Shown here: in pieces, positions 13,556-57,849 of the stretch
Layout: each line of letters begins with the position of its first letter
How positions within the stretch are numbered: position 1 is the stretch's first letter
Source of the DNA: an uncultured Chthonomonas sp.
Lineage (GTDB): Bacteria > Armatimonadota > Chthonomonadetes > Chthonomonadales > CAJBBX01
Length of the DNA: 64,000 nt
Assembly (NCBI GenBank): GCA_903885605.1
Contig: CAISJD010000192.1
Coordinates: 1,063-65,062 of the forward strand
Direction: 5' to 3'
Notes under the pieces: model-generated
What the model was told of the DNA's origin: nothing
Seen by the model: the letters and a program-made list of their open reading frames with translations, nothing else
Database searches by the model: none
Position numbers and translations under genes: made by a program

Positions 13556-13566
13556 GACAGTCGCGT

Positions 13567-13639
13567 TGCCGGATAGCTCAGTTGGCAGAGCGGCTGACTC
13601 TGGATCAGCAGGTCTAAGGTTCGAACCCTTATCCGGCAG
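13567..13639 (+). tRNA. tRNA-Gln (anticodon CTG)
   Basis: Hand-folded cloverleaf. Acceptor TGCCGGA/TCCGGCA, D stem GCTC/GAGC, anticodon stem GCTGA/TCAGC with loop CTCTGGA (anticodon CTG at 13600-13602), T arm TAAGG-TTCGAAC-CCTTA, discriminator G. A U1:A72 pair is present and CCA is not encoded. Confidence 0.9.
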
Positions 13640-13659
13640 TACTGACCAGCCTATCAGTG

Positions 13660-50137: not shown

Positions 50138-53100
50138 TTACGGAACCACGTTGAACGCGGCGTTGGCCGAGGCGGACGAGTACCACGCGTCGCCCGCGAA
50201 GGCGGCGGTGGCCGTGTGGGCTCCCAGCGCCTCGCCGGCGGGCATGGCCCAGGTGGCGCTTGCCCAGCCGTCGGCGGCCACCGTGCCGCTCCCGACGCCC
50301 GTGCCGTTCACGCTGAAGGCGATGCTCTTGCCGGGCAGGATGACGTAGTCCGGCAGGCTGCGGACGTAGGCCTTCAGCAGGTGGTTGGTCCCCTTCTTGG
50401 CGGAGCGGACGTAGGGCCAGATGTAGATGTCGCCCTTGGTGACGGTGAGCTTGCCGTTGTTGGCCGAGGCCACGTAGCCGCCGTCGCCGGCCCACTCGCT
50501 GCGAACCGTGCGGATGCCCGCGCCAGAGCCCTCCGGCACCGTGTAGCCGAGCTGGGCGTAGCCCGCCGCGCGGGTCACGTCCGAGCCCAGCACGGAGCCG
50601 TCCACCTTGATCACCATGGTCTTGCCCCCCACCGGCGTGTTATTCAGCAGGTAGAGGTAGGCCTTGAGCACCGTGTACGTCTTGACCTTGGCCGTGCGGT
50701 CGACCACGTAGACCTTGGTGGCCAGGGTTTGGGCCGTCAGCTTGCCCGTGGTGACGCTGGGTCCATACTCCACGTCGCCATCGAACCGGGCCTGGATGGT
50801 CCGGCTGGCTGGCCCATCGCTGATCACCCAGGTCAGCGCGGCCTGGCCGTCGGCGTCCGTGACGGCCGAGCCCACGTCGACGCCCTCGACGCGGAACGCC
50901 ACCGTGCGGCCGCTGAGCCAGGTGTTGTCGGACAGGCGCTTCAGATACCCCTTCAGCGCGATGGAGGTGGTGATGACGCCGGTGCGGTCCGGCGCGTAGA
51001 TCGACGTTCGCGGCCGGTCTGACGCCACGAGCGCCGTGTTGTTGTCCTCGCGGCCCTCGGCAATGGCGTTGCCGGGGTCGGCGACCACGCGGATCTGGGC
51101 CACGTTGACGCCCGCCATGACGGGCACGTCGATCCGCTGGGTGATGAAGCCCGCCAGGCTCGGCACGGTGGTCGAACCGAGTTGCACTACGCCGGGCGTT
51201 CCCGGCACGCCGGTGTAGGCCGCGACCACCAGGTCCGAGAGCGTGTCGAAACTCCGGTTGGTCACCGTGACGTGGGCCGTGCCGGTTCCGTCCCAGTTCC
51301 ACTCGAAGGTGGCGTCAGATGGGTCCACTGCCACGTCGGGCTGGGTCGATACCTCGCCCCAGTAGATCGTGCCCGCCGTGCCGTCGCACCCGTCGGCGCC
51401 GATGCCGCCCGCAGCGGTGACCGTGCCACCCGGGAAGCCCGTTCCGGCGACGCACCGCACGGCTATCCGACCGCCGCCGCCGCCGCCCGCCCGGACTTCG
51501 GGGTGCTCGTCGTGATGTGCAGCGCCTCCGCGAGCTCCGATGAGGCCGGAGCCGGAGAGCGTGGTGCAGGCGATCCGCACACTGCCGCCGGAGCCCGCAC
51601 CCGCATTGGCGTTCGGGTTGCCGTCGGAGATGATGGAGCCGTTCAGCAGGAGCGTGCCCCGGACCGTGACCGCGACGATGCCGCCTCCCGATGAGCCGGG
51701 AATGGCGTCGCCGATGTTGGAGCCGCCGCCGCTGCCCCAGTCGGCGGGCCAGGTGGGCGCGCCGTAGGGGGCGTAGGGGTTCCCGCCGCCGATCCCTCCG
51801 TAGGTTGCGCCGTCACCCGCGCTGTAGTCCCCATGCCCCGGGCCGCTGCGGTTGCCGTTGCCCATGCCCGTGGCGTCGATGGATGCGCCGGCCGCCACCG
51901 TGCAGTCCTGGCCGATCCAGATCTCCACGCCGCGGTTGTCCATCTGCTGGCACCGCAGCGTCGAGCCCGACTCCATCAAGAGGCTCCGCAGGGACATGCC
52001 GGCCACCGATGTGGAGAGCGTCATCGTGGCGTTGCGTATGCGCAGGTCTACGTCCGGCATCTCCAGCACGGGCTGCAGGACCGGACCGATCAGGACCCCG
52101 TTGTCGAATGCCAGCGTCGCAGTGCTGTCGCCCTGCCTCCGGCGGTAGATCGAGCCGGGCCCGCCGTCCATGGAGGAGCCGTTGAGCGCGCCTGCACCGC
52201 CCCGGCACTCTACCGTGCCGGCGAATGCGTCAGCCCCGTAGCTCAGGGCGATGCGCCCGCCGCCGCCGCCGCCTGCCATCCATCCCGCAGGCAGTGCGGA
52301 GATATCCGGCGAGCCGCCGTTGGCCGTGACGACGCCGGACCCCATGAGGGTGCCGACGCTCAGGAGTACCGAGCCGCCCGCTCCGGCGCCCACGTTGGCG
52401 GGGCCGGCTCCGTCGGCGCGGATGGCGCCGTCCAGGAGTAGCGTGCCCGGCACGGTGAGGCGTATGCGCCCTCCGCCTGCGCCGCCGGGATAGGCGTCGC
52501 CTACGTTGGATCCGCCGCCGCTACCCAGGTCTGAGGGCTCGACGATTGAGGCGTAGGCCCACTGGCCGTTCCCCGCGCCGGAGCCGCCGTGGGTGGCTCC
52601 GTTGCCGGCGCTGTATGTGCCCCCGCCAGGGCCGGAGCGGCTGGGGTAGCCAAGGCCGGTCACGTCGATGGAGCCGCCGGACTGGACGGTCAGGTTCTGT
52701 CCGACGGTCGCGCGGAGGCCGAACGAGCCGCTGGGGAGACAGGTGAGCGTTGTGTTCGGACCGAGCGTCAGGCTGCGGGCGTTGAGCCCGTCGGCCTCGT
52801 CGGAAAGGACCATGACCGCGCCGCGCACGACGAGGTCGGCCTCGGGCCGCGCGAAGGCCACCTGGTAGATCGCGCCGATGGCGCCGCCGTTGTCAAAGGT
52901 CAGGTTCGCCGCGGTCGCTCCGGTCTGCAGCGTATAGATCGAGCCGGGGCCGCCGTCGGCCACCGAGGTGTCGAAGAAGCCGCGGCCGCCCTGGGCGGAT
53001 ACCATGCCCGTGAACGCGGTCGATGCGTAATAGAGCGCCACGCGCCCGCCGCCGCCGCCGCCCGCCTGCCAGCCCGCGGGCAGGGAGGTCACGTCCGGCG

Positions 53101-56100
53101 TGCCGCCGTCGGCGGAGATGACGCCGTTGCCGCTGAGCGATCCGACGGTGGCGTAGATGGAGCCGCCCGAGCCGCCGCCTGTGTTGGGCGCACTGCCTCC
53201 CTCGGCCAGGATGGCGCCGCTGTTGGCCAGCGCGCCGTGTACGATCAGGCGTATCTTCCCGCCGCCCGCGCCGCCGGGGTAGGCGTCGCCTACGTTCGAG
53301 CCGCCGCCGCTACCGAAGTCGGTGGGCTCGACGATGGAGCCGTACGCCCATCGGCCGTTGCCGGCTCCCGAGCCGCCGTAGGTGGCGCCGTTGCCTCCGC
53401 TGTAGTCGCCGCCGCCCGGGCCCTGCCGGCTGGGGTAGCCCGCGCCGGTTACGTCGAGGGAGGCCGATGCTGCGACCGTCAGGTCTTGCCAGACCGTCAG
53501 CCGCAGGCCGGGGTCGTTGGCGCCGAGGCATGTGATCACGCTACCCTCGCCGACGGCGAGATTGCGGGCGCCCATGCCGGCGGGATCGGGCGATAGTGTC
53601 ATCACGGCGCCCAGCACCGTCACGTCCGTGTTCGGCATGTCGAAGACCGGCTGCATCACGTTGCCGACCTGCCCGTTGTTATCGTACAGCAGAGTGGATT
53701 GGGTCTCCCCGTTGCGCTGCATGAAGATCGTGCCCGGTCCGCCGTACAGGGGCGTGGTGTAGATTCTCCCCGCGCCGCCGCGAGCGTCCATGCGGCCCGC
53801 GAAGGTGTTGGCGTCGTAGTGCGCCGCGATCCGTCCGCCGCCTCCGCCGCCTGCCGGCCAGCCTTCGGGCAGGGCGGAGACGTCAGGCGACCCGCCCACG
53901 GCCTCGATGAGGCCCGAGCCGGCCAGGGAGCCGACCTTCAGGTGGATAGAGCCGCCGGAGCCGCCGCCTGCGTTAGCCGGGCCGATCCCATCCGATAGGA
54001 CCGAGCCTTCCACGGTGAGGGCGCCGGCGACGGTCAGGTCCACCAGCGCGCCGCCGGAGCCGCCCGGCCATGCGTCGCCGACATTGGGTCCGCCGCCGCT
54101 GCCCAGGTCGGTCGGCGCCTCGATGCTGCCGTAGACCCAACGGCCGTTGCTGGCTCCCGATCCGCCGTAGGTCGCGCCGTTGCCGGCGCTGTAGTCGCCG
54201 CTACCCGATCCCTGGCGGCTGGGATAGCCCAGTCCGGAGCCGTCCAGTGAGCCGCCGGGTCCCACCGTCAGGTCCTGCGCGGTGGTGATCTTAATGCCGT
54301 CGGCCGTGGCCTGCTGGCACAGGATCACAGAGCCGGCATCAACGGTCAAGTTCCGCACGCTCAGGCCGGCCGCATCGCTGGAGAGCGTCATCACGGCGCC
54401 CTTGATCGTCATGTCCAGATCGGTCATGGCGAAGACGGGCTGCAGCACCGGACCGGTCAGCGCGCCGTTGTCGAAGAGCAGTGTGGCGAAGGCCGCGCCG
54501 GACTGCCGCATATAGAGCGTGCCCGGCCCGCCGACCGCTGCCGTGCTGTTGACGCGCCCATGCCCGCCGCAAGCCTGGTAGGCGCCGGTGTAGTTGAGGG
54601 TCTGGTACTCGATGCCGATCCGCCCGCCGCCGCCGCCGCCGGCCAGCCAGCCGTCGGGCAACGCCGAGGTATCCGGCGAGCCGCCGACGGCCGAGATCAG
54701 GCCTGAGCCCGCCAGCGTGCCCACGGCGAACCGCAGGCTGCCGCCGGAGCCGCCGCCGGCGTTGGCCGGGCCGATGCCGTCGGCGCGGACCGAGCCGTCC
54801 ACGGTGCAGACGCCGCCCACCGTGATGCCGGCGATGCCGCCGCCCGGGCCGCCCGGCCATGCGTCGCCCACGTTGGGTCCGCCGCCGCTACCGTAGTCGA
54901 CCGGAGCAGTGAACGAGCCATAGGCCCAGCGCCCGTTGCCGTAGCCCGAGCCGCCATAGGTCGCTCCGTTACCGGCGCTGTAGTCGCCGCCGCCGGTTCC
55001 CTGCCGGTTCGGATGCCCCGTACCGTTGACATCGATGGAGCAGCCCGCATCCACCGTCAGGTCTCCGGAGACCTGCAGCGGAAGGCCGAACCCGTCCACT
55101 GCGGGACAGGTTGCCTCGGCGGCGGTCATGAGCCGCATGTCGGCCACCTGGATGGGTCCGCTGCTGCAGCTGAAGCAGATACGCGCCATGGCGAGCGTCA
55201 GGTCGGCGTCGGGAAGGGCCACGGCCGCGTGCTGGGTATAGCCGAAAGCCGGGCCGTTGTTGAACTCGACTGTCTCGTGCGACGTGCCCAGCCCGTGGCA
55301 GTAGACGGTGCCGGGGCCGCCGTTGCATGCAGCCGTCCCGTAGACGCCCAGGCCGCCGCGGGCCTGCATCTGGCCGCTGAACGTGCTCGTGGTCCAGGTC
55401 ACGGAGACCCGGCCGCCGCCGCCGCCGCCCGCCCGCCAGCCGGGGGTCATCCCGGAGACGTCCGGCGTTCCGCCGTTGGCTACGAAGGTTCCATCCCCCG
55501 CCAGGGTCGTCGCGCTCAGGCGGATCGAGCCGCCCGCGCCGCCGCCCGCGTTGGCCGGGCCGATGCCGTCGGAGCGGATGTTGCCCTCCACCCGGCAGAG
55601 GCCGCCCACTGTCAGGTCGATAAGCCCGCCTCCCGTGCCTCCCGGCCAGGCGTCTCCGAGGTTCGAGCCGCCGCCCGAGCCGTAGTCGGCGGGCGCGGTG
55701 ACGGAGTCATTGGCCCACCTCCCGCTGTCGCCGCCTGTGCCGCCGTGCGTGGCTCCGTTACCGGCGCTATAGTCACCGTTGCCGGGGCCGTTTCGGCTCG
55801 GGTACCCATGGCCCGAGGCGTCGATCCGGCTGCCGCTCTCGACCGTGAGGTCGCCGGAGACGGCAATCTGCAGCGCAGGTCCGGCCGGTGCCACGACGCC
55901 GCTGTCGCGGACGAGCAGGCTGGCGTAGGATGCCCCTCCTCCTCCGCAGTCGATGGTCAGCGTACAGCCGGTGACGATGATCGGCTCGCCGGTGTACGAG
56001 CCGGCCGGTATCGTGGTGTCGCTGGTGAACTCCACGGCCTGCGCGATGCCCGGGGCCAGGCCCACCAGGCAACAGAGCGCGGCAACGGCGGCCCGTAGCC

Positions 56101-56128
56101 GCCCGATCTTCGAGATGACATGCAGCAT
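50138..56128 (-). CDS. giant secreted protein (1996 aa): six 263-aa glycine-rich repeat modules + CARDB domain + three Ig-like domains
   Basis: GGGAGAG 7 nt before ATG 56128. Signal MLHVISKIGRLRAAVAALCCLVGLAPGIAQA. Six modules each contain DLTV..G.SID..G.GYPSR.GPG.GDYSAGNGATYGG...GSGGG.NVGDA.PGG.GGG...GPANAGGG.GGS....GGGGGGR. CARDB-like segment aa ~1596-1702 (...VVADPGNAIAEGREDNNTA). Three Ig-like repeats follow to the C-terminus. The track ORF (to 57292) continues upstream only as R/P/H-rich sequence overlapping the next gene. Confidence 0.75.
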   Translation of the reverse strand: MLHVISKIGRLRAAVAALCCLVGLAPGIAQAVEFTSDTTIPAGSYTGEPIIVTGCTLTIDCGGGGASYASLLVRDSGVVAPAGPALQIAVSGDLTVESGSRIDASGHGYPSRNGPGNGDYSAGNGATHGGTGGDSGRWANDSVTAPADYGSGGGSNLGDAWPGGTGGGLIDLTVGGLCRVEGNIRSDGIGPANAGGGAGGSIRLSATTLAGDGTFVANGGTPDVSGMTPGWRAGGGGGGRVSVTWTTSTFSGQMQARGGLGVYGTAACNGGPGTVYCHGLGTSHETVEFNNGPAFGYTQHAAVALPDADLTLAMARICFSCSSGPIQVADMRLMTAAEATCPAVDGFGLPLQVSGDLTVDAGCSIDVNGTGHPNRQGTGGGDYSAGNGATYGGSGYGNGRWAYGSFTAPVDYGSGGGPNVGDAWPGGPGGGIAGITVGGVCTVDGSVRADGIGPANAGGGSGGSLRFAVGTLAGSGLISAVGGSPDTSALPDGWLAGGGGGGRIGIEYQTLNYTGAYQACGGHGRVNSTAAVGGPGTLYMRQSGAAFATLLFDNGALTGPVLQPVFAMTDLDMTIKGAVMTLSSDAAGLSVRNLTVDAGSVILCQQATADGIKITTAQDLTVGPGGSLDGSGLGYPSRQGSGSGDYSAGNGATYGGSGASNGRWVYGSIEAPTDLGSGGGPNVGDAWPGGSGGALVDLTVAGALTVEGSVLSDGIGPANAGGGSGGSIHLKVGSLAGSGLIEAVGGSPDVSALPEGWPAGGGGGGRIAAHYDANTFAGRMDARGGAGRIYTTPLYGGPGTIFMQRNGETQSTLLYDNNGQVGNVMQPVFDMPNTDVTVLGAVMTLSPDPAGMGARNLAVGEGSVITCLGANDPGLRLTVWQDLTVAASASLDVTGAGYPSRQGPGGGDYSGGNGATYGGSGAGNGRWAYGSIVEPTDFGSGGGSNVGDAYPGGAGGGKIRLIVHGALANSGAILAEGGSAPNTGGGSGGSIYATVGSLSGNGVISADGGTPDVTSLPAGWQAGGGGGGRVALYYASTAFTGMVSAQGGRGFFDTSVADGGPGSIYTLQTGATAANLTFDNGGAIGAIYQVAFARPEADLVVRGAVMVLSDEADGLNARSLTLGPNTTLTCLPSGSFGLRATVGQNLTVQSGGSIDVTGLGYPSRSGPGGGTYSAGNGATHGGSGAGNGQWAYASIVEPSDLGSGGGSNVGDAYPGGAGGGRIRLTVPGTLLLDGAIRADGAGPANVGAGAGGSVLLSVGTLMGSGVVTANGGSPDISALPAGWMAGGGGGGRIALSYGADAFAGTVECRGGAGALNGSSMDGGPGSIYRRRQGDSTATLAFDNGVLIGPVLQPVLEMPDVDLRIRNATMTLSTSVAGMSLRSLLMESGSTLRCQQMDNRGVEIWIGQDCTVAAGASIDATGMGNGNRSGPGHGDYSAGDGATYGGIGGGNPYAPYGAPTWPADWGSGGGSNIGDAIPGSSGGGIVAVTVRGTLLLNGSIISDGNPNANAGAGSGGSVRIACTTLSGSGLIGARGGAAHHDEHPEVRAGGGGGGRIAVRCVAGTGFPGGTVTAAGGIGADGCDGTAGTIYWGEVSTQPDVAVDPSDATFEWNWDGTGTAHVTVTNRSFDTLSDLVVAAYTGVPGTPGVVQLGSTTVPSLAGFITQRIDVPVMAGVNVAQIRVVADPGNAIAEGREDNNTALVASDRPRTSIYAPDRTGVITTSIALKGYLKRLSDNTWLSGRTVAFRVEGVDVGSAVTDADGQAALTWVISDGPASRTIQARFDGDVEYGPSVTTGKLTAQTLATKVYVVDRTAKVKTYTVLKAYLYLLNNTPVGGKTMVIKVDGSVLGSDVTRAAGYAQLGYTVPEGSGAGIRTVRSEWAGDGGYVASANNGKLTVTKGDIYIWPYVRSAKKGTNHLLKAYVRSLPDYVILPGKSIAFSVNGTGVGSGTVAADGWASATWAMPAGEALGAHTATAAFAGDAWYSSASANAAFNVVP

Positions 56129-56360
56129 CGATCTGCTCTCCCGGCGCCGTAGCAGGGCGCCATGCAGGACGCGTAGGCCGTCATCGGCCCGGTCGCACGC
56201 CCCGCCTTCACTTGGTAGAGAGCGCAACGCCGGATCGTGATAGGCCGTTGGGCTCCATGCACGCCGAGAGCGCTCAATGCCTTGCTTCTTCGGCATCTTG
56301 GCGGTGATTCCTCCGTCCCTGGAAGGCCACGAGCGCCGGGCTACCGGGGATCGTGCGCGC

Positions 56361-56410
56361 AAAGGGGGCCTGCATACTGCCACGCTGAGCGCAGCAGTAC
56401 GCAGGCCCCC
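56361..56410 (-). terminator. stem-loop terminator after the sulfatase-like gene
   Basis: On the minus strand, GGGGGCCTGCGTACTGC...GCAGTATGCAGGCCCCC forms a 17-bp stem with one G:U pair, followed by TTTG. It lies 33 nt downstream of the stop at 56443. Confidence 0.5.
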
Positions 56411-56442
56411 TGATCCGGCAGGATGGACGGGGCGGCGCGCCC

Positions 56443-57849
56443 CTACTTCCGGGCCTCGCTCTGGAGCTTGGCGGCCTGGTTCGGGTCGCCGATGTGCATC
56501 GTGTCGTAGGCCTGCTGCGAGGTCTTGAAGGGGCCGACGCCGGCGTGGCCGTGCCAGTCGCCCTGGTGGTGCATGGGGTTGGGCAGGCCGGTCTCGGCCT
56601 CGCGCCGGGCGATCCAGGCGTCCATCTGCGCACGGAGGTAGGCGACGACCTCGGGCTGCGCCTCGGCCACGTTCTCGTTCTCCTCCGGGTCGGTGATCAG
56701 GTTGTAGAGCTCGACCTCGGGCTTGAAGTGGAAGTCCGGCTCCAGCGCCACCATGAGCTTCCACTCGGGCGTCCGCCAGCCGTGCTTCCGCATCCACGTG
56801 CACTCCGTGATGTAGAAGCTGCTGTCGTGGGACGCCTCCTCGCCGCGCACCATGTCCATGAGGCTCGTGCCGTCGAAGGCGCAGCCGGGGGCCTCGATCT
56901 CGGCCAGCTCCAGCAGCGTGGGGACGAGGTCCTTGTGCTGGTTGTAGCCTGAGAGGCGGACGCCCGCGGGCACCTTGGCCGGGTAGCGGATCACCAGCGG
57001 CACGTGCAGGGTGCAGTCGTACATGCCGTGGTGGTCGAACCAGCACTCGTGGTCGTAGAGCGTCTCGCCATGGTCGGAGTTGATGACCACGATGGTCTCG
57101 TCCAGGATGCCCATCGTCTCCATCGCGGTGAAGATGGCCTGGATGGAGGCGTCCATGTAGGCGACGGCGCCGTCGTACTGGGCGATGACGTAGTCCTTGT
57201 CCGCGATGCCCGGCGGCATCCATGCGGCGAAGAAGTCGCAGAAGGGCTTGAAGGTCATCACCGGGTCCATGGACTTGTTGGCCGGGTCGCACTCGTCGCC
57301 GTGGTAGAAGGCGCGCTCATAGGGCGCCGGCGGCAGGTAGGGCGCGTGCGGGTCCATGTGGCGCAGGAGCATCATGAAGGGCTTGTCGTCGGCGGCCAGG
57401 CGCTCCATCTCGGGGATCGCCACGGCGTTCAGGTTCTCGGCCTTGGGGCTGCGGCCTTCGTTCCAGCTACCCCAGCCGGCGAACTCCAGGTACTTGTCGA
57501 AGCCGCGCGAGGCCGGGTTGCCGCCGAAGCCGACGCAGGTGGTGTTGTATCCGGCCTCCTTGCAGATTTCGGCCAGGGTCTTCACTCCGTCGCGGATGCC
57601 GCCCTGGTGGCGCAGCGCAACGATCTGCGTGCCGAAGCAGTCCATGCCGGTGAGCATGGAGCCGTAGCCGCTGGTGGTGGGGATGTGCGCGCTGAAGGTG
57701 TTCTCGAAGACTGCGCCCTCTTCGGCGAAGACGTCCATATGCGGCGTGGTGAAGCGCGGATAGCCGTAGAGGCTCATGTGATCGGCCCGCAGCGAGTCGA
57801 TCCCGATGACGAGGATGTTGGGCTTGCGGCCCGAGCCTGATGAAGCCAT
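56443..57849 (-). CDS. sulfatase-fold (alkaline-phosphatase superfamily) hydrolase/transferase lacking the C/S-x-P-x-R motif
   Basis: MASSGSGRKPNILVIGIDSLRADH..., and the C-terminal part is typical of the sulfatase fold (NSDHGE). The formylglycine position reads IPTTSGYGSMLTG, with Thr where Cys/Ser is expected. Only the last 468 codons of the 1201-aa track ORF look like protein. Confidence 0.8.
   Translation of the reverse strand: MASSGSGRKPNILVIGIDSLRADHMSLYGYPRFTTPHMDVFAEEGAVFENTFSAHIPTTSGYGSMLTGMDCFGTQIVALRHQGGIRDGVKTLAEICKEAGYNTTCVGFGGNPASRGFDKYLEFAGWGSWNEGRSPKAENLNAVAIPEMERLAADDKPFMMLLRHMDPHAPYLPPAPYERAFYHGDECDPANKSMDPVMTFKPFCDFFAAWMPPGIADKDYVIAQYDGAVAYMDASIQAIFTAMETMGILDETIVVINSDHGETLYDHECWFDHHGMYDCTLHVPLVIRYPAKVPAGVRLSGYNQHKDLVPTLLELAEIEAPGCAFDGTSLMDMVRGEEASHDSSFYITECTWMRKHGWRTPEWKLMVALEPDFHFKPEVELYNLITDPEENENVAEAQPEVVAYLRAQMDAWIARREAETGLPNPMHHQGDWHGHAGVGPFKTSQQAYDTMHIGDPNQAAKLQSEARK

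Follow-up and report, generated by a model that had tools for sequence, protein, structure and literature searches.

The DNA analysed here is a stretch of 64,000 nucleotides, hereafter called the window, of contig CAISJD010000192.1 from an uncultured Chthonomonas sp. (Armatimonadota; assembly GCA_903885605.1). Its minus strand carries the gene of a glycine-rich protein of 1996 aa (21% Gly), in which a putative signal peptide is followed by six modules with a period of 263 aa, a CARDB-like domain and three immunoglobulin (Ig)-like domains (Table 1). The stop-to-stop open reading frame (ORF) enclosing this gene spans 50138..57292 (minus strand); the sensible start is the ATG at position 56128, from which the product begins with MLHVISKIGRLRAAVAALCCLVGLAPGIAQA/VEF. 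The public gene call for this gene, P0001, has the identical 1996-aa product, in agreement with a preliminary description of the locus, which was made from the sequence alone and proposed a secreted protein with six repeated modules. According to their canonical tripartite pattern, residues 1-31 are inferred to be a Sec-type leader. When the locus was scanned for promoters and terminators, no match was obtained. At approximately 72% GC, the region from 49 to 57 kb contains many long spurious ORFs on both strands, and raw ORF lists are misleading here: the 388-codon in-frame extension upstream of the P0001 gene (56129-57292, minus strand) is spurious, and so is another ORF of 1201 aa, which merges the sulfatase gene into one frame.

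Table 1. Features of the P0001 gene and its product, with positions in the window, strand and remarks.
CDS (coding sequence) of the 1996-aa protein, stop codon included	50138..56128	-	corresponds to public gene call P0001
Shine-Dalgarno-like GGGAGAG	56136..56142	-	7 nt 5' of the ATG; direct sequence reading
Putative Sec-type signal peptide, aa 1-31	56036..56128	-	basic n-region, hydrophobic core AAVAALCCLVGLA, then AQA/VEF
Module 1, aa 33-295	55244..56032	-	N-terminal ~60 aa form a cap; 3-aa indel relative to later modules
Module 2, aa 296-558	54455..55243	-	module register and family-profile match
Module 3, aa 559-821	53666..54454	-	the module modelled singly with AlphaFold2
Module 4, aa 822-1084	52877..53665	-	modelled with AlphaFold2 jointly with module 3
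Module 5, aa 1085-1347	52088..52876	-	module register and family-profile match
Module 6, aa 1348-1610	51299..52087	-	C-terminal cap; most diverged (32-43% identity); small indels
Six near-perfect (GGC)5-6 runs encoding GGGGGG	55412-55429, 54623-54640, 53834-53851, 53045-53062, 52256-52273, 51470-51487	-	
CARDB-like domain (CARDB PF07705), aa ~1650-1698 matched	51035..51181	-	Pfam
Ig-like domain 1, Big_3_5-like	50711..50983	-	Pfam, below gathering score
Ig-like domain 2, Big_3_5-like	50426..50710	-	Pfam, weak, below gathering score
Ig-like domain 3, Big_3_5 (PF16640)	50141..50425	-	Pfam, 38.9 bits (gathering score 35.5)

With a profile of diverse members of the module family, six full-length matches were obtained in the P0001 ORF (E 1e-65 to 1e-74 each) and zero module matches elsewhere in the window. 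D[LC]TV anchors are located at aa 93, 356, 619, 882 and 1408, the copy at 1408 in module 6 reading DCTV, and the fifth anchor at aa 1145 is NLTV instead of DLTV. Thus, the six anchor positions and their 263-aa spacing given previously are correct, while two of the six were not DLTV; the nucleotide positions reported for them follow from 56128 - 3(n-1), where n is the residue number. Extra copies of DLTV are present inside modules at aa 171 and 697. The motif GNGAT or GDGAT was found at aa 123 + 263n in all six modules, and GGGGGGR at aa 234, 497, 760, 1023, 1286 and 1548, with a spacing of 263 aa in four intervals and 262 aa in the last, exactly as described before. The C-terminal domains also correspond to the earlier assignment: CARDB reached 25.7 bits when aa 1600-1715 were scanned alone (gathering score 22.7) and 19.6 bits when the whole protein was scanned, and of the three Ig-like domains only the last passes the Big_3_5 threshold.

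Compared pairwise without gaps in the 263-aa register, the modules are 32-59% identical. When the five DLTV-to-DLTV units were aligned in free global alignments, every pair was gapless at 44-62% identity. Small indels are present in module 6. Compared as DNA, the repeats agree at 46-67% of positions, and the longest exact word they have in common is 25 nt. Their identity at third codon positions is 46-57% at a third-position GC content (GC3) of 0.86-0.90, which is nearly saturated when compared with the chance identity of about 40% estimated for this GC3. Because the identity is low at both the amino acid and the DNA level and the third positions are near saturation, the repeats are old duplications. 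That the lengths are equal because of a recent duplication or gene conversion is ruled out by the near-saturated third positions and by the presence, in the 56%-identical relative P0004, of positional orthologues of the first, second and last modules; module 6 is the positional orthologue of the last module of P0004.

Since the sequence is metagenome-derived and contains an internal repeat region of 4.7 kb, collapse or expansion of repeats during assembly has to be considered as an explanation of the six-copy array. With repeats this dissimilar in DNA, such an artefact is hardly conceivable; Tandem Repeats Finder (TRF) detected no long-period (789-bp) tandem repeat. The identical 1996-aa protein is encoded on 7 contigs from several samples, three ENA samples among them, and an 87% relative was found on at least 18 contigs. 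Further, orthologues with 86-87% identity in two other metagenome-assembled genomes (MAGs) are also 1996 aa long and align without a gap. The presence of the same or a near-identical protein in so many independent assemblies effectively refutes an assembly artefact.

To place the constant period in context, it has to be seen against the whole family. When 1.84 billion cluster representatives (50%-identity clusters) were searched exhaustively with the profile, 15,091 proteins matched at E<=1e-3, 10,315 at E<=1e-10 and 5,458 at E<=1e-30. Many of them have 2000-6600 aa and 4-12 modules, and according to their source names they come from Armatimonadetes, Verrucomicrobia/Limisphaerales/Pedosphaera, Planctomycetota and others. 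Their annotation is either "hypothetical" or a name taken from accessory domains only. The closest GTDB genome is a MAG of an uncultured Chthonomonas sp. with 87% identity. Measured between anchors, the period of 120 homologues is 245-292 aa (median 260 aa), and 108 of the 120 have no uniform unit length. The variation resides in three segments, namely before the GNGAT-type motif (27-50 aa), after it (35-59 aa) and in the N-terminal coils (66-109 aa). The core coil spacings of 39, 33 and 27 aa are held in about 80% of more than 800 modules. The family signature consists of the arcs GG.GGG, GGGSGGS and GGGGGGGR, each followed by a strand, at spacings of approximately 39, 33 and 27 aa, and the P0001 protein matches it.

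For an indel test, anchor-defined units were compared in global pairwise alignments, with the units of 116 proteins outside the clade P0001-P0004 as the background. In this background, unit pairs with 40-60% identity were gapless in 42 of 1285 cases within proteins and in 17 of 3562 cases between proteins, and none of the proteins outside the clade with at least four units was wholly gapless. P0004 has five modules, and all of its internal modules comprise 263 aa; the 263-aa lock is older than the split between P0001 and P0004. The lock is thus real and statistically unusual within the clade P0001-P0004, far beyond the family norm. The preliminary description had deduced a rigid structural constraint from the exact period. 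This applies to the clade, whereas in the family at large the module length varies, and 263 aa is a property of the lineage and not a law of the family. Among relatives the copy number of modules changes (six, five or four) at unchanged unit length. A second period that is nearly locked, at 257 aa with modules about 50% identical to each other, was found in verrucomicrobial proteins of approximately 3300 aa (P0009, P0011, P0015, P0036, P0052, P0060 and P0097), in which six modules are combined with a caspase domain (Peptidase_C14) and DUF7619. The Armatimonadetes MAG which encodes the six-module orthologue P0003 also encodes a four-module paralogue, P0006, with 1443 aa, 47% identity and periods of 256-260 aa (GCA_026392115.1, contig JAPLCQ010000152.1, locus L002, 8001-12332).

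The glycine arcs of the modules offer a view on how such a length is maintained. In each module the GGGGGG sequence is encoded by a near-perfect (GGC)n run (Table 1). In a public variant of 1995 aa, P0258, the run of module 2 is exactly one Gly short. Six Gly are kept in all modules of all other assemblies and of the 86-87% orthologues. The (GGC)n runs are prone to slippage, yet the six Gly are kept, which indicates purifying selection on the arc length; the variant P0258, short by one Gly, shows that such mutations do arise and that selection acts against them.

The structure of module 3 was predicted with AlphaFold2 (AF2) from a 40-sequence alignment. All five models had a predicted local distance difference test (pLDDT) score of at least 94, and the prediction reached a pLDDT of 96.4 and a predicted TM-score (pTM) of 0.93. 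The joint prediction of modules 3 and 4 was similarly confident (pLDDT 95.8, pTM 0.92), and in it the strands run uninterrupted across the module junction. This argues for an inter-module geometry that is fixed, and hence for one continuous rigid solenoid instead of beads on a string. In the model of module 3, residues 2-71 form short coil-like strands and residues 137-256 form coils with a long and a short strand. Between them, residues 72-136 constitute a 65-residue glycine-rich stretch with a pLDDT of 94-97 and no DSSP assignment. Each of the later coils opens with a glycine arc (PGGSGG, AGGGSGG, AGGGGGG or GGPG), which is followed by a long strand; the invariant arc pattern is G-x-G-x-G-G with a beta-strand directly after it. 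Of the two structural ideas put forward in the preliminary description, a solenoid and a polyglycine-II (PGII) lattice as in eukaryotic glycine-rich domains, the solenoid fits these predictions, in which the beta-strand coils are very confident in the one- and two-module models.

The preliminary description did not recognize the module as part of a named family, and our searches agree with it. Pfam-A was searched with the whole protein (E<=1) and with 40 diverse modules (E<=10) and four relatives, and NCBIfam with the whole protein; no model matched the module of P0001, and there was no assignment to a named family. The sole Pfam match below E 0.01 among the 40 modules was a marginal one to DUF5649 (E 0.0011) in the N-terminal coils of one relative. 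There were no matches to the models of Beta_helix (PF13229), PbH1, NosD and pectate lyases, nor to the RTX family HemolysinCabind (PF00353), and the glycine arcs are devoid of the conserved Asp of GGxGxDxUx repeats. The 40-module profile had no match at E<=10 among PDB sequences, and full-text literature searches found no description of the module. According to Foldseek, neither the one-module nor the two-module model has a significant match in the PDB (best E>=0.07, TM-scores 0.1-0.33). The nearest folds, all non-significant, are right-handed beta-helices: Pel3, EtpA, IcsA, Ag43, TibA, tailspikes and PL6/pectate lyases, with Ag43 (4kh3, E 0.07) as the best match of the two-module model.

The only fold neighbours near significance were found in BFVD, where uncharacterised phage proteins and glycine-rich proteins of giant viruses matched weakly (E 3e-4 to 1e-2, TM-score approximately 0.4). 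They include A0A6J5KZ69, A0A2I2L380, S4VX73 and A0A7S6NY19_2, which are uncharacterised proteins of phages and, from the giant viruses Orpheovirus, Pandoravirus and Bathycoccus virus, "collagen-like" or PA14 proteins (E 3e-4 to 6e-3). These viral proteins and the module may share a glycine-rich solenoid element. A tblastn search for phage relatives of the module found none.

The viral matches and the glycine-rich stretch lead to the question whether this part of the module could be a bundle of PGII helices of the kind known from ALK/LTK, phage gp38 and the snow-flea antifreeze protein (sfAFP), which would provide a flat surface for the binding of a ligand or receptor. The 21% Gly of the protein and a confidently predicted stretch of 65 residues per module, which is neither helix nor strand, are in line with this idea, and the receptor-binding domain of gp38 of phage PP01 appeared in the PDB list, at the non-significant E 5.3. 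Like the glycine-rich domain (GRD) of ALK/LTK and other PGII proteins, the P0001 protein combines a high Gly content and a putative extracellular location with runs of at least six Gly followed by hydrophobic strands. However, we detected no similarity to them in sequence, profile or fold. In P0001 the Gly runs are predicted to be arcs which open solenoid strands, and the arc pattern with its immediate strand would fit beta-arcs better than an i, i+3 periodicity. The 40 modules did not match Pfam Gly_rich (PF12810), and Foldseek did not find ALK, LTK or sfAFP, although the ALK/LTK GRD chains are part of the PDB copy searched. A PGII bundle is therefore very doubtful. Homology to the ALK GRD, the residues of which were verified in 7lrz, is ruled out by hhalign with the module profile (probability 0.3%).

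The genomic surroundings allow another reading. The P0001 gene is located between a sulfatase gene (upstream, same strand, at a distance of 315 bp) and genes for GH43 (glycoside hydrolase family 43) and cellulase-like proteins, and GH30 and N-acetylglucosamine (GlcNAc) 2-epimerase are also encoded nearby. The module could thus be a catalytic or carbohydrate-binding beta-helix of the pectate lyase, PL6 or tailspike kind, and the protein a multivalent enzyme acting on glycans in concert with the products of the adjacent sulfatase, GH43, GH5-like and GH30 genes. Polysaccharide lyases and tailspikes are among the top fold matches, and the glycine-rich part contains aromatic residues conserved in the clade (DYSAG, GRWAYGS, GDAWPGG and GW.AGGGGGG). 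In addition, the sulfatase gene is kept beside the 86% orthologue. However, these fold matches are non-significant (E >0.07, TM-score <=0.33), and what P0001 has in common with pectate-lyase-fold enzymes and phage tailspike depolymerases is the putative beta-helix class and the glycan-degradation neighbourhood, not a PbH1, Beta_helix or lyase match or conserved catalytic residues. Across 810 modules we found no conserved constellation of acidic or basic catalytic residues. The invariant residues are nearly all Gly, and the other conserved residues are small, hydrophobic or of the ladder type (L, V, I, A, F218, N216, N259, R208, P114 and Y108). This pattern of arc Gly, small or hydrophobic core residues and Asn/Arg ladder-type positions argues for a scaffold and not for an active site. 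Finally, the neighbourhood is not kept in more distant relatives, and proximity is weak evidence, since Chthonomonas-type genomes are rich in scattered genes for carbohydrate-active enzymes anyway. Altogether, the P0001 protein does not look like an enzyme, and we regard a catalytic or carbohydrate-binding function of the module as rather improbable.

Beside the 86% orthologue, the sulfatase gene and an ORF of 325-330 aa of no known family are kept, and nothing more. The sulfatase gene (56443-57849, minus strand, in the window; locus L001, 8276-9682) is the only annotated neighbour kept there, where it appears to be split into ORFs of 299 and 160 aa. The paralogue P0006 and more distant relatives are situated in unrelated neighbourhoods. 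In the compared neighbourhoods there was no dedicated secretion or assembly partner and no conserved operon partner; since the latter was not found, P0001 is a stand-alone structural gene. Approximately 4.5 kb upstream, at about 60.5-61.5 kb (estimated by gene order), the window encodes a prepilin-type N-methyl protein of 262 aa, which weakly matches SBP_bac_10 (DUF1559-like). Such prepilin-type proteins are typical of type II secretion or pseudopilin-like families in Armatimonadota and the Planctomycetes-Verrucomicrobia-Chlamydiae (PVC) group. The sole tRNA gene of the window is that of tRNA-Gln (CTG) at 13566-13640 on the plus strand.

Based on the predicted structure and on the conservation pattern, we think it reasonably probable that the P0001 protein is exported by Sec and forms a rigid rod, in which six solenoid modules are stacked and followed by a CARDB/Ig stem, and that it serves as an extracellular stalk or an adhesin-like fibre. 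After export by the Sec pathway to the outside or the cell surface, the six modules would stack head to tail into a single continuous rod. Each module would contribute about three short N-terminal coils, the glycine-rich excursion of approximately 65 residues and three to four C-terminal coils. With 8-10 coils per module, as estimated from the DSSP pattern of the two-module model, and the standard 4.8 Å per coil, the rod could be approximately 25 nm long. The exact period would come from a tight glycine-dependent arc at almost every turn, and in the clade P0001-P0004 the three loop regions which are variable elsewhere would be under purifying selection as well. The CARDB and the three Ig-like domains may form a flexible stem or a binding end, and the rod might be a stalk which projects something, or might itself bind a long repetitive surface, possibly of glycans. 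An extracellular location is suggested by the accessory domains of the relatives, which include Ig-like domains (Big_3_5, Big_5, I-set), dockerin, CarboxypepD_reg and caspase, a set typical of proteins outside the cell.

Among fibrillar adhesin-like proteins, stalks made of tandem beta-helical modules are an accepted class (PMC8286594). With such proteins (Monzon et al. 2021, PMC8286594) P0001 has in common a putative signal peptide, tandem stalk-type modules (six modules and three Ig-like domains) and Ig-like domains, while a known adhesive domain and a recognised anchor were not detected and its module is outside the Pfam stalk families. A comparison with adhesin and autotransporter rods (Ag43, TibA, IcsA and EtpA/FHA-type two-partner secretion (TPS) proteins) gives a similar picture. 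As is proposed for P0001, these are long, secreted, rigid rods of stacked coils with tandem stalk repeats. However, their coil repeat is 19-32 aa long, whereas P0001 would be built from a 263-aa super-module of about 8-10 coils with an embedded glycine-rich excursion of 65 residues. P0001 is also devoid of a beta-barrel translocator, a TPS domain and PATR/AIDA repeats by Pfam, and the TM-scores of these rods to the module models are only 0.1-0.33.

Several observations weigh against an exported rod. By Pfam there is neither an adhesive domain nor a cell-wall or outer-membrane anchor, an autotransporter barrel, a TPS domain or a sorting signal: the N-terminus has no match, and the C-terminus matches CARDB and Big_3_5 only. 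A C-terminal sorting tail was not found either, the protein ending in Ig-like domain 3, and the gene neighbourhood contains no ShlB/POTRA gene. This matters because the orthologous MAG harbours lpxK and Kdo-transferase genes and thus belongs to a lineage with lipopolysaccharide, in which there is an outer membrane to cross or to attach to. Moreover, most relatives tolerate indels in these three loop segments, which tight arcs by themselves leave unexplained.

In-register lateral assembly would explain the lock best. The rods could be subunits of a periodic structure, such as a surface lattice, a sheath or Ag43-like lateral fibres, in which all modules would need equal length and an equal surface for staggered neighbours to be in register, and this would fix the 263 aa. 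The lock covers the loops which are variable in most relatives, and it has survived the module divergence (44-62% identity) and the split between P0001 and P0004. The unrelated caspase-fused verrucomicrobial clade is nearly locked as well, at 257 aa, and the number of modules varies while the unit length is constant. The best match of the two-module model, Ag43, is a self-associating protein, but the match is non-significant. Further, the 108 of 120 relatives with non-uniform units imply that a lattice cannot be a family property, and indels in solenoid loops leave the axial repeat unchanged, so that register does not need an exact residue count. We therefore consider such a periodic assembly unlikely. 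A bolder proposal is that the module represents a new fold family, a solenoid with an embedded, ordered glycine lattice which is absent from the PDB, and that the rods with locked periods assemble in register with the module as a molecular ruler. We judge this combination to be rather unlikely. If true, several bacterial phyla would build giant extracellular rods from a module with a new fold, with lineages locked to 263 aa and to 257 aa.

Giant secreted beta-helical repeat proteins are already known; what is new here is the glycine-rich super-module of about 260 aa with clade-specific locked periods. As a building block of surface proteins in bacteria the module is real, although uncharacterised, and it belongs to a very large family without a name. 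Its identification is important for several reasons. The module, for which there is neither a Pfam or NCBIfam model nor a solved relative, makes up very large secreted proteins of environmental phyla in more than 10,000 clusters, and its definition would annotate a sizeable block of the "dark matter" among bacterial surface proteins. Owing to the very high AF2 confidence, the module should be a well-behaved target for structure determination and a candidate for a new domain family. Further, the locked and unlocked lineages offer a natural comparison by which to ask why indels are forbidden in some repeat arrays and tolerated in close relatives. For the glycan-degrading, freshwater, Chthonomonas-like bacterium itself, the P0001 protein is most likely one of the major surface or extracellular structures.

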